This document shows positions 9,001 through 12,000 of a DNA stretch of 64,000 nucleotides, piece after piece. The notes below the pieces were generated by a model. The model was given only the letters and a program-made list of their open reading frames with translations, searched no databases and had not been told where the DNA came from. A program made the position numbers and the translations under genes. Source of the DNA: Acidobacteriota bacterium (GTDB lineage: Bacteria; Acidobacteriota; Thermoanaerobaculia; Multivoradales; UBA5704); assembly GCA_040005235.1 (NCBI GenBank), contig JBDTZG010000001.1:160001-224000 (forward strand), given 5' to 3'. Positions within the stretch are counted from its first letter, which is position 1; each line of letters starts with the position of its first letter.

Positions 9001-12000
9001 TCCCGACGCCGGGAGTCGACGCCTACGTCCTCGACCGCCGGGGCAACCTCTCGCCGGCCGGAGCTCCGGGCGAGTTGGTGGTCGGCGGCATCGGCCTCGC
9101 TCGCGGCTACCTCGGCGCGCCCGATTTGACCGCCGAGCGTTTCGTCCCCCATCCGTTCGCCGCCGCGCCCGGCCTGCGGCTCTACCGCACCGGCGACCTG
9201 GTGCGGTGGTCGGCAAATGGCGAGCTGGAATTCCTCGGCCGCATCGATACCCAGGTGAAGGTGCGCGGCTTCCGCATCGAGCTGGGGGAGATCGAGCGGG
9301 CGCTCTCCGCCCACCCCAGAGTCCAGGAGGCGGTGGTGGTCGCACGGGCCGAAGGGGGAACCGAAAAGCGGCTGGTCGCCTACGTCGTGCCGCGCGCGGA
9401 CTCCGCGGAATCGGCCGGTCCTCTCGATGCGGCGGAGCTGCGCGCTTTTCTCGGGCGGACGCTGCCGGAGTACATGATTCCTTCGGCGATCGCGACCCTT
9501 CCTGAGCTGCCGAAGAACACGAGCGGCAAGGTCGATCGCAAGGCGCTCCCCGATCCGCGCGAGGTGGGCGCCGCGGAGCGCGAGATCGCGGGCCCGAGAA
9601 ACCCGCTCGAAACCTTTTTGGTCGGCCTGTTCGCCGAGACGCTCCACGTGAAGACGGTGGGCATCGACGAGAACTTCTTCGAGCTGGGCGGCAACTCGAT
9701 CGCGGGCGCGATGCTGGTCAACCGCCTTCAGGAAGAATTGGGCGAGATCGTCCACGTCGTCGTGATGTTCGAGGCGCCGACGATCGAAGGTCTCGCGGCC
9801 TACCTGGTCGAGAACTACCCCTCCGCGCTGGCTCGACGGTTTGGGCTCGCGGGCGGCGGCGCTGGAGCGAGCGCAGGTCCACTCACTCCAATCACCGAAG
9901 AGAAGATCGCGGCGTTTTCCGCGCTGGTGCCAGTGCGCAAGCCGGTCCGTCTGGAGGGCGCACGGAAGAACCCCGGCGTGTCGTTCGTGCTGTCGCCGCC
10001 GCGCTCCGGCTCAACACTCTTCCGCGTCATGCTCGCCGGCCATCCGCTGCTGTTCGCTCCGCCCGAGCTGGAGCTGCTGCCTTACGACGATCTGCGCGAG
10101 CGGCGCGACGACTTCCCCGGCCGCTACAACCATTTCCTCGAAGGGGCGGTGCGCGCGGTGATGGAGTTGGATCGTTCGGGGGCTGAAGCCGCCGAAGCGA
10201 AGCTCGACGCCTGGGAGCAGGAAGGGATCTCGATGGCGGAGGTCTTTGCCCGCTTGCAAAAAGCCGCCGAGCCGCGGCTGCTGGTCGACAAGACCCCCGG
10301 CTATTCGCTCCACCCGAGCATCCTTTCGCGCGCCGAGGAGATGTTCGAGGGCGCCCGCTACGTCCACCTGATCCGCCATCCGTACGGCATGATCCGGTCG
10401 TTCGAAGAGGCGAAGCTCGATCAGGTGTTCTTCCGCGCCGAGCACAGCTTCACCCGCCGCGAGCTGGCGGAGCTGGTCTGGCTCGTCTCGCACCGCAACA
10501 TCCTGGCGTTCTTTGAATCCATTCCCGCCGAGCGCAAGCACGCGGTGGTGTTCGAGCAGCTGCTCGCCGAACCGGAGCGCGTGCTGCGCAGCGTCTGCGA
10601 ATTCCTCGGGCTCGATTACCAGCCCGACATGGCGGCGCCTTATCAGGCATCGGCAGAGAAGCAGTCGGCGCGGATGACCGACGGCCTTCACTCCTGGTCG
10701 CGGATGGTGGGCGACGTCAAGTTCCACGAGCACGGCCGGATCGAGCGGGGCGTCGCGGATCGCTGGAAGAACGAGATCGGCGAAGATTTTCTCGGCGAGC
10801 CGACGCGCGACATGGCGGAGACCCTGGGCTTCGCCCGTCGCGAGGCGGGCTGGGTGCCGCTGGGGTCCGCCGGCTGGCAGGTCGGGCAAGAGCTGCCTCT
10901 GTCGTTCGCCCAGGAGCGGCTGTGGTTCCTCGCCAGGCTCGAACCCGAGTCTCCCGCCTACAACGTGCCGAGCGCGCTGCGCCTGCGCGGCGCTCTGTCG
11001 GTGCCGGCGCTTTCCGCCGCGCTCGACGCGCTGGTCGAGCGCCACGCCGCCCTGCGGACGCGCTTTGCCGATCGCCTCGGCCATCCGGTGCAGATCGTCG
11101 AGCCAGCGCGGCCGGTGAAGCTTGCCGGCATCGACCTGTCCCGGATCGACGGCGCGGCGCGCGAGTCCGAGCTGTCGCGGTTGGCCCTCGGCGAGGCGCT
11201 CCGTCCATTCGATCTGTCGCGGGCGCCGCTCCTGCGCGCCGCTCTGGTGCGGCTGGCCGACGACGATCACGCGGTCCTGTTCGCGATGCATCACATCGCC
11301 TCGGACGGCTGGTCCTCCGGCATTCTGGCGGGTGAGATCGGCGCGCTCTATGCCGCGGCTCTGGAGCATCGCGCGCCGGCCCTCGCCCCTCTGCCGATTC
11401 AGTATGCCGACTATGCGGTCTGGCAGCGCGCCTGGCTCACCGGGCCGACGCTCGACTCTCACCTCGCTTGGTGGAAGGAGTCGCTCGCGGCGGCTGCGCG
11501 CGGCGGCGAGCTGCCTCCGGCGCTTGAATTGCCCACCGATCGCCCGCGCGGAGTGTTGGGAGGGGGAGCGAACAAGCGCGGAGCCACTCGCTTCTGGGGG
11601 ATTCCGGCCGAGCGCCTGAACGGCCTCGACCGCTTGGCGCAGGAAGAGGGGGCAACACCGTTCATCCTGTTTCTGGCGGCATTCGGGGCACTGCTTGGGC
11701 GCGCTTCGGGTCAGACCGATTTCGCGGTCGGCACCCTGGTCGCGAACCGGACGCGGGCGCAGATCGAAGGGCTGATCGGCGTGTTCATGAACACCCTCGC
11801 GCTGCGGCTCGACCTCTCGGGAGATCCGAGCTTCCGCGAGCTGGTGCGGCGAACCAAGAGCCTGTCGCTCGGCGCGTTCGCGCACCAGGAGGTGCCGTTC
11901 GAAAAGGTCGTGGGGGAGATCCAGCCGAACCGCGACCTCGGGGGCTCGCCGCTGTTCTCGGTCATGTTGCTGCTCCAGAACGCGCCGGCCGGCGCGCTGT

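Follow-up and report, generated by a model that had tools for sequence, protein, structure and literature searches.

What does a sulfotransferase (ST) domain related to that of curacin biosynthesis do in the middle of a peptide assembly line? The question is raised by a 64,000-nucleotide stretch of an Acidobacteriota bacterium of the class Thermoanaerobaculia (assembly GCA_040005235.1, contig JBDTZG010000001.1, positions 160,001 to 224,000; here called the window), an uncultured, soil-type organism known from metagenome-assembled genomes (MAGs) only. The window holds three co-directional megasynthase open reading frames (ORFs), and in the first of these, a hybrid of polyketide synthase (PKS) and non-ribosomal peptide synthetase (NRPS), an ST stands behind a module with a putative tyrosine code. 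A sequence-only reading had proposed that the tyrosine is O-sulfated on the assembly line, with cryptic sulfation and elimination to a dehydro residue as the alternative. On balance, the evidence presented here points to a working tailoring ST that depends on 3′-phosphoadenosine 5′-phosphosulfate (PAPS) and probably O-sulfates the carrier-bound tyrosine on-line, the sulfate being retained; the product would then probably be a hybrid polyketide/peptide containing sulfotyrosine.

Domain order of the ST-bearing synthetase

Within the window, ORF1 consists of the modules C-A-T, C-A-T, C-A-T-ST, C-A-T, and C-A-T (C, condensation; A, adenylation; T, carrier; coordinates in Table 1). Its frame opens with ketosynthase (KS), acyltransferase (AT), and acyl carrier protein (ACP) domains, about 3 kb before the window starts, and is itself preceded by a separate C-A-T gene. 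The ST lies in frame between the third carrier and the fourth condensation domain, with no stop codon, giving the order C3-A3-T3-ST-C4. Pfam assigns nt 9984-10790 to Sulfotransfer_3 (PF13469, E 1.3e-28, covering profile positions 3-215 of 216) and also to Sulfotransfer_1. Three independent profile and sequence searches concur, and the T3-ST-C4 architecture is confirmed as real, well past chance. Directly after the ST comes C4 and no thioesterase (TE); of the ten A-containing modules still to come, ORF1 and ORF2 hold two each and ORF3 six, and the TE is found only at the end of ORF3. The sequence-only reading had described both the in-frame ST and the ten further modules without an intervening TE, and the Pfam and PDB searches and the domain calls of ORF1 to ORF3 bear this out. 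A chance frame or antisense artefact in the ST region was considered and dropped, long antisense ORFs (e.g. 10011-13997, minus strand) being a usual by-product of a G+C content of about 70 %, which is that of the window.

Kinship and intactness of the sulfotransferase

The nearest solved structures, found with phmmer in PDB, are the STs of an olefin synthase (OLS; 4gox, E 1.8e-67) and of CurM (4gbm, E 2.3e-64), both matched over nearly the full domain. The tyrosylprotein sulfotransferase TPST2 gives a weak but significant match (E 6e-5), and a protein atlas search returned generic Sulfotransfer_3 clusters only. Three motifs are common to the window ST and the CurM and OLS domains: the PRSGST loop, which we take to bind the 5′-phosphosulfate; the Glu of PPEL; and RHPY...S, presumably the 3′-phosphate-binding motif. 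In the alignment, the CurM segment lfsppelhllpf is matched by a segment of 12 residues that retains the Glu and has another Glu in place of the His, just as had been noted from the comparison of FSPPELHLL with FAPPELELL. Relative to both structures, the window ST has a six-residue insertion ahead of RMTDG.

Comparison of 252 ST domains gives 68 near-invariant columns (at least 95 % conserved); the window ST carries the consensus at 66 of these and F for Y at the other two. The PPEL Glu is retained in 250 of the 252 domains. At the position of the CurM/OLS His, Glu is found in 231 and His in a single one. The exchange of His for Glu thus marks the clade and is peculiar neither to this gene nor to Tyr modules. 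Against three orthologous Thermoanaerobaculia loci, the ratio of non-synonymous to synonymous substitution (dN/dS) of the ST is 0.106-0.115, compared with 0.13-0.19 for A3, 0.08-0.12 for T3, and about 0.17 for C4; purifying selection acts on the ST no less strongly than on its neighbour domains. Because the near-invariant columns match and dN/dS is this low, the ST domain looks functional.

Adenylation codes and the acceptor

The ten specificity positions of the A domains were aligned with the A4, A5, and A10 motifs as anchors. Those of A3 read DASTVAAVCK, as had been reported from the letters; the name attached to them, Tyr, is presumably that of the Stachelhaus table. The DAST code is presumably also that of the beta-hydroxy-Tyr modules of glycopeptides, and no mention of DAST code strings was found in the literature search.

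Every A domain of 173 ST-bearing database proteins was then surveyed, 148 of these A domains being followed by an ST and 124 not. Among the 148, Thr codes number 40, Ser 28, DAST (taken as Tyr) 17, and homoserine (Hse) 5, the remainder being DGxxxGExxK (17), DIWExTADDK (10), DAxVSGxIxK (6), and other codes (25). The A domains without an ST in the same proteins have six Thr, six Ser, and three DAST codes. Codes for these four hydroxy amino acids are therefore carried by 90 of 148 modules with an ST and by 15 of 124 without (odds ratio 11.3, the kin sequences not being independent). The Hse assignment follows that of DLKNVGSDVK (PMC12283262). Because Thr, Ser, Tyr, and Hse codes are enriched in ST-carrying modules, the simplest reading is that the ST would modify the side-chain hydroxyl of its own module's residue. 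The window provides an internal control: A4 of ORF3 (DASTIAAVCK) belongs to a second DAST module, which lacks an ST and whose carrier is of the ordinary GGHSL kind. The ST tree follows the code of the upstream A domain, with 27 label changes compared with 68.6 when shuffled, a difference whose independence is overstated, as in all tree and count tests here, by the use of kin sequences. On this tree the window ST adjoins other Tyr-linked STs that are followed by a C domain.

Two further codes were recorded in the survey. All 17 ST-linked cases of DGxxxGExxK continue as T-ST-TE (among database proteins including P0023-P0081). The code DAATVAAVCK, one residue off DAST, is found without an ST in A5 of ORF1 (16206) and A1 of ORF3 (26419 region); a code of this type was followed by an ST in one case.

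The carrier ahead of the sulfotransferase

T3 had been described as unlike all other carriers of the assembly line. Over a segment of 15 residues it does differ from most of them, which read LGGHSL; however, T2 of ORF2 shares GGNSI with it, and the description was slightly overstated. GGHSL is found in 5 of 220 carriers ahead of an ST and in 107 of 141 other carriers; most pre-ST carriers read GG(N/D/S)S(I/L). In a tree of 361 carrier domains the pre-ST label changes 11 times, against a mean of 112 when shuffled. Carriers ahead of an ST are a type of their own.

The proposal that T and ST had arrived together as a cassette gains support from this tree, in which the two are co-inherited. The unit that moves seems to be larger. 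At L015, the second locus of a MAG that also holds locus L014, the A domain is 81 % and the ST 86 % identical to those of the window, whereas the next C domain is 51 % identical; it is on this account that A-T-ST seems to be the mobile unit, moved between assembly lines.

Proposed on-line sulfation and its alternatives

In the preferred reading, A3 would load tyrosine onto T3 and C3 would attach the upstream chain, sulfation taking place either before or after this condensation. T3, of the carrier type almost confined to the position ahead of an ST, would swing the thioester-bound residue into the ST, where the PRSGST loop and the RHPY...S motif would bind PAPS. The Glu of PPELELL would deprotonate the phenol hydroxyl, and sulfuryl transfer would follow. 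The sulfated chain would be handed to the ordinary C4, carried through the ten further modules, and released by the terminal TE with the sulfate still attached. The on-line O-sulfation that had been proposed is thus favoured by the comparative data, and the sulfotyrosine product is predicted from the codes. More generally, the ST may be a general, hitherto uncharacterised tailoring 'S domain' of NRPSs, occupying the slot of an epimerization (E) domain and, with its own carrier type, O-sulfating Ser, Thr, Tyr, and Hse on-line in elongation and termination modules alike; the case for this wider proposal is evenly balanced.

Several points weigh against on-line sulfation of tyrosine with retention of the sulfate. 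The association between code and ST comes partly from joint inheritance of whole modules and is no proof of adaptation. Tyr-linked and Ser/Thr-linked STs are separated at one column only (Val versus Ile), which is surprising if both a phenol and a beta-hydroxyl, far apart in their distance from the thioester, are acceptors, and which would count against a finely tuned acceptor pocket. Of the 148 ST-linked codes, 58 are not assignable to a hydroxy amino acid, and the Tyr label of DASTVAAVCK is itself putative. Lastly, the genome could encode, at some other site, an enzyme that later removes the sulfate.

The near identity of the ST pockets in Tyr and Ser/Thr contexts would also fit a real sulfotransfer to another acceptor, such as an amine, a different residue of the bound chain, or, were the Tyr hydroxylated, its beta-hydroxyl. 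Precedent exists in SulN, which N-sulfonates a carrier-bound tripeptide in trans (PMC11298585). The ten ST-linked DIWExTADDK codes, in which two Asp suggest a basic side chain, likewise hint at possible N-sulfonation in those modules. An acceptor of this kind is unlikely at T3, however: the enrichment of Ser, Thr, Tyr, and Hse codes points to the side-chain hydroxyl of the module itself, the two Gly-code modules upstream of Tyr give no side-chain acceptor, and the scan of flanking ORFs showed no hydroxylase gene.

Cryptic activation, in which the sulfate would serve as a leaving group in the manner of CurM and OLS and be eliminated or displaced to give a dehydro residue or a cross-link in an unsulfated product, is rather improbable as well. 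It draws on the nearest characterised kin, the CurM and OLS STs, which act in this way on beta-hydroxyacyl carriers (mechanism in PMC11730487). Ser and Thr codes, in 68 of the 148 ST-linked modules, place a hydroxyl beta to the thioester, and a beta-hydroxy-Tyr at the DAST module would do the same. Yet 22 of the 148 ST-linked modules carry Tyr or Hse codes, and the side chains of these residues cannot beta-eliminate; no hydroxylase was seen in the scanned flanks.

The domains that receive the chain also argue against elimination. C4, matched best among solved structures by the C domains Txo2 and Txo1 of teixobactin synthetase, is of the ordinary HHxxxDG type. Downstream regions could be judged for 177 of 249 STs from database proteins, the other 72 having too little sequence: 99 have HHxxxDG, 49 a TE motif, and 6 a variant, 23 are uncallable, and NHxxxDG is found in none of the 177. 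C domains behind an ST form no separate clade (57 label changes compared with 78.7 when shuffled). The assembly line has a separate candidate for dehydration in C2 of ORF2, where NHAIFDGW stands for HHxxxDG and the closest solved structures are those of McyA (E 7.3e-93) and AmbE (E 3.2e-57). This C domain, presumably of the 'modified amino acid' or dehydrating type, follows a Ser-code module with a GGDSI carrier and suggests a dehydroalanine at that position of the product.

TEs behind NRPS STs were tested with three short ST-TE proteins against PDB, since a whole-protein search with P0096 left the TE buried under C and A matches. NRPS TEs (4zxh or 7crn) were best in all three, and 3QIT, which we take to be the entry of the curacin TE of CurM, was in none of the three match lists, of which two were complete. 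In FkbH-PCP-ST pathways (PCP, peptidyl carrier protein), moreover, glycerate 3-O-sulfate, in which the sulfate is also beta to the thioester, is described as surviving the later NRPS steps. The elimination that had been offered as the alternative is accordingly disfavoured.

All of the evidence for on-line sulfation would fit equally well if the sulfate on tyrosine were transient, a protecting, solubilising, or pro-drug group taken off after release or export. This is improbable, as no sulfatase was found in the ORFs scanned on either side of the synthetase genes, over about 17 kb upstream and about 18 kb downstream, a search that did not extend to the rest of the genome. That the ST is an inactive relic or structural spacer, as the lost CurM/OLS His beside the Glu might suggest, is very improbable given that the replacement is clade-wide, that nearly all near-invariant positions are kept, and that dN/dS, at about 0.11, is as low as or below that of the flanking A, T, and C domains.

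Comparison with known systems

The CurM and OLS STs of curacin and olefin synthases are the closest solved kin and are likewise fused behind a carrier, acting, or presumably acting, on a carrier-bound thioester. In those systems the ST belongs to an ACP-ST-TE off-loading unit that follows KS, AT, and ketoreductase (KR) domains and receives a beta-hydroxyacyl chain. Here, in contrast, the ST follows an amino-acid module with its own A domain (C-A-T), and a C domain and ten modules come after it; the TEs of ST-TE relatives are of NRPS type, and the sulfate is probably retained and not used as a leaving group. By its sequence the window ST is a member of the wider CurM/OLS family, but it is not classed with CurM off-loading systems, because the dedicated TE, the KR-made beta-hydroxyacyl substrate, and the His are all missing. 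It has been suggested that ST homologues without a TE likely yield sulfated metabolites (PMC11730487).

The kinship with CurM and Ols-type STs that had been claimed is close; the implication that such domains are found only at PKS termini has to be corrected, since STs within NRPSs are already described from FkbH-PCP-ST loading modules (PMC2533009, PMC10143770, PMC6520454). These modules give the 2-O-methylglyceric acid 3-O-sulfate of suomilide and varlaxin (PMC10143770) and the sulfated glycerate of cyanopeptolins and dysinosins (PMC2533009, PMC6520454). In OciA (cyanopeptolin), AerB (suomilide and varlaxin), and DysB (dysinosin), as here, the ST follows a PCP and is followed by a C domain, and the sulfate ester is described as kept in the products. 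They differ in that theirs are FkbH initiation modules for glycerate, whereas the window ST is in an A-loaded elongation module (Tyr here; Ser, Thr, or Hse in relatives) without FkbH. In its working the window ST appears closest to the FkbH-PCP-ST modules known from cyanobacterial protease inhibitors, but set in an amino-acid elongation module, a likeness drawn from their descriptions and not from their sequences. P0098, a metagenomic protein, has FkbH-T-ST (TIGR01686, E 4.3e-91), with an ST 51 % identical to that of the window and in the same PPELELL clade.

SulN (sulfazecin) and StaL (A47934) are also PAPS-dependent and sulfonate non-ribosomal peptides, SulN while the peptide is on the carrier (PMC11298585). 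Both are stand-alone enzymes acting in trans, and SulN makes a sulfamate on diaminopropionate, whereas the ST described here stands in cis, fused to T on one side and C on the other. StaL presumably acts after assembly. TPST1 and TPST2 make sulfotyrosine, the predicted product here too, and their PRSG(S/T)T loop and Glu align with those of the window ST, but the TPST2 match reaches only E 6e-5 against E of the order of 1e-64 or lower for CurM and OLS, and the TPSTs act on ribosomal proteins and peptides, not on carrier-bound thioesters. RaxST is grouped with the tyrosine sulfotransferases.

The open literature yielded no report of an ST fused into an elongation module for an amino acid, subscription journals and supplements lying outside the search; the results were limited to the CurM/OLS, Oci/Aer/Dys, SulN, and stand-alone cases.

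Distribution of T-ST units

The architecture is not singular, and it is common among uncultured Acidobacteriota; it is found three times in this genome, and in more than 1000 database protein clusters. The second T-ST-C copy, at locus L007, is 55 % identical to the window ST and lies in A-T-ST-C order after a Ser-code A domain, within an open frame that exceeds 7000 aa. The third, at locus L003, is 51 % identical and lies on a 2.6 kb contig broken on both sides. A word-indexed protein search, limited to proteins of 589-2000 aa, gave 979 matches at E<=1e-20, with source-supplied names mostly of Thermoanaerobaculia, Pyrinomonadaceae, and other Acidobacteriota MAGs. When cluster representatives were searched exhaustively, 1139 clusters matched at E<=1e-30, and those listed are nearly all long multidomain proteins.

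Behind the ST, motif calls for the 252 domains give a C domain in 110, a TE in 77, and no callable domain in 65; the survey calls were made with our own regular expressions on core motifs, by which some domains are missed. The order A(DAST[VA]AAVCK)-T-ST is kept at five Thermoanaerobaculia loci, with a C domain next in four; the fifth (L016) stops at the ST. A-T-ST-C is also found in one Gammaproteobacteria MAG and one unclassified bacterium. In an even sample of the phylum the ST is rare, with matches at E<=1e-40 in 4 of 401 genomes, the genome of the window included. Where present, the ST is multi-copy, with three copies here and five in the only other genome of the same family. No ST match was found in five cyanobacterial genomes reached through carrier-only loci. 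Nine of the listed proteins (P0122-P0129 and P0133) have two STs each, implying doubly sulfated products.

Significance

Sulfate esters alter charge, solubility, and target binding, and sulfotyrosine in particular serves for recognition in the biology of hormones and receptors. Sulfation of non-ribosomal peptides has so far been attributed to stand-alone enzymes and glycerate-loading modules, and the present data suggest a portable A-T-ST unit. If the ST is a general 'S domain', there would be a large hidden class of sulfated non-ribosomal peptides, sulfotyrosine peptides included and the product of this cluster among them, in Thermoanaerobaculia, Pyrinomonadaceae, and other uncultured bacteria. 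Should the chemistry be confirmed, predictors for biosynthetic gene clusters should add +SO3 at Ser, Thr, Tyr, and Hse positions preceding an ST, synthetic reconstructions of predicted peptides would need the sulfate, and the T-ST pair could be used as an engineering part for site-specific sulfation.

Sequence features and flanking genes

The window corresponds to positions 160001-224000 of contig C118 in a genome of 6.2 Mb and 140 contigs. Its features are listed in Table 1 with the two further T-ST-C copies of the genome.

Table 1. Features of the synthetase locus and of related T-ST-C copies (window nucleotide positions unless a contig is given)
Feature	Position	Strand	Basis or remark
ORF1	3-17492	+	Window part of hybrid PKS-NRPS, 5′ end open; whole open frame 6894 aa
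C3, condensation domain of the ST-bearing module	6645-8006	+	Condensation profile match
A3, adenylation domain	8073-9530	+	Specificity code DASTVAAVCK
T3, carrier of pre-ST type, motif LGGNSI	9618-9806	+	Pfam PP-binding; phosphopantetheine Ser codon nt 9696-9698
ST, NRPS-associated clade, kin of CurM/OLS ST	9963-10832	+	phmmer against PDB
PRSGST loop	9999-10016	+	Alignment with CurM/OLS ST
PPELELL	10059-10079	+	Glu nt 10065-10067 aligns with Glu of CurM, OLS, and TPST2; Glu nt 10071-10073 replaces CurM/OLS His
VDKTP	10284-10298	+	Asp and Lys kept in at least 95 % of 252 ST domains
RHPYGMIRS (R...S)	10374-10400	+	Conserved across the family
C4, ordinary HHxxxDG condensation domain taking the chain from T3	10887-12240	+	Pfam and PDB matches
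ORF2, two modules, Ser and Thr codes	17489-24205	+	Domain and code calls
C2 of ORF2, atypical condensation domain	20786-22168	+	NHAIFDGW for HHxxxDG; McyA and AmbE best solved matches
ORF3, six modules, one E domain, terminal T-TE	24202-46020	+	Domain calls; TE nt 45268-46008
PLD-like gene	48069-49487	+	Less than 7 kb downstream of TE
Di-haem oxidoreductase (DHOR)	49566-50969	-	Less than 7 kb downstream of TE
Group-1 glycosyltransferase	51040-52701	+	Less than 7 kb downstream of TE
Second T-ST-C copy, locus L007	C84:5976-6923	-	55 % identical to window ST; A-T-ST-C after Ser-code A
Third T-ST-C copy, locus L003	C55:343-1278	+	51 % identical to window ST; contig broken on both sides

No PAPS gene was found among the flanking ORFs scanned for the hydroxylase and sulfatase. 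An APS kinase gene (APS, adenosine 5′-phosphosulfate) is present elsewhere in the genome, and the host is therefore predicted to be able to make PAPS. Just upstream of the synthetase genes are a Schlafen/AlbA_2-HTH gene and a complete type I restriction-modification system with HsdR, HsdS, and HsdM (L008:1483-9753, equivalent to C118:141483-149753).

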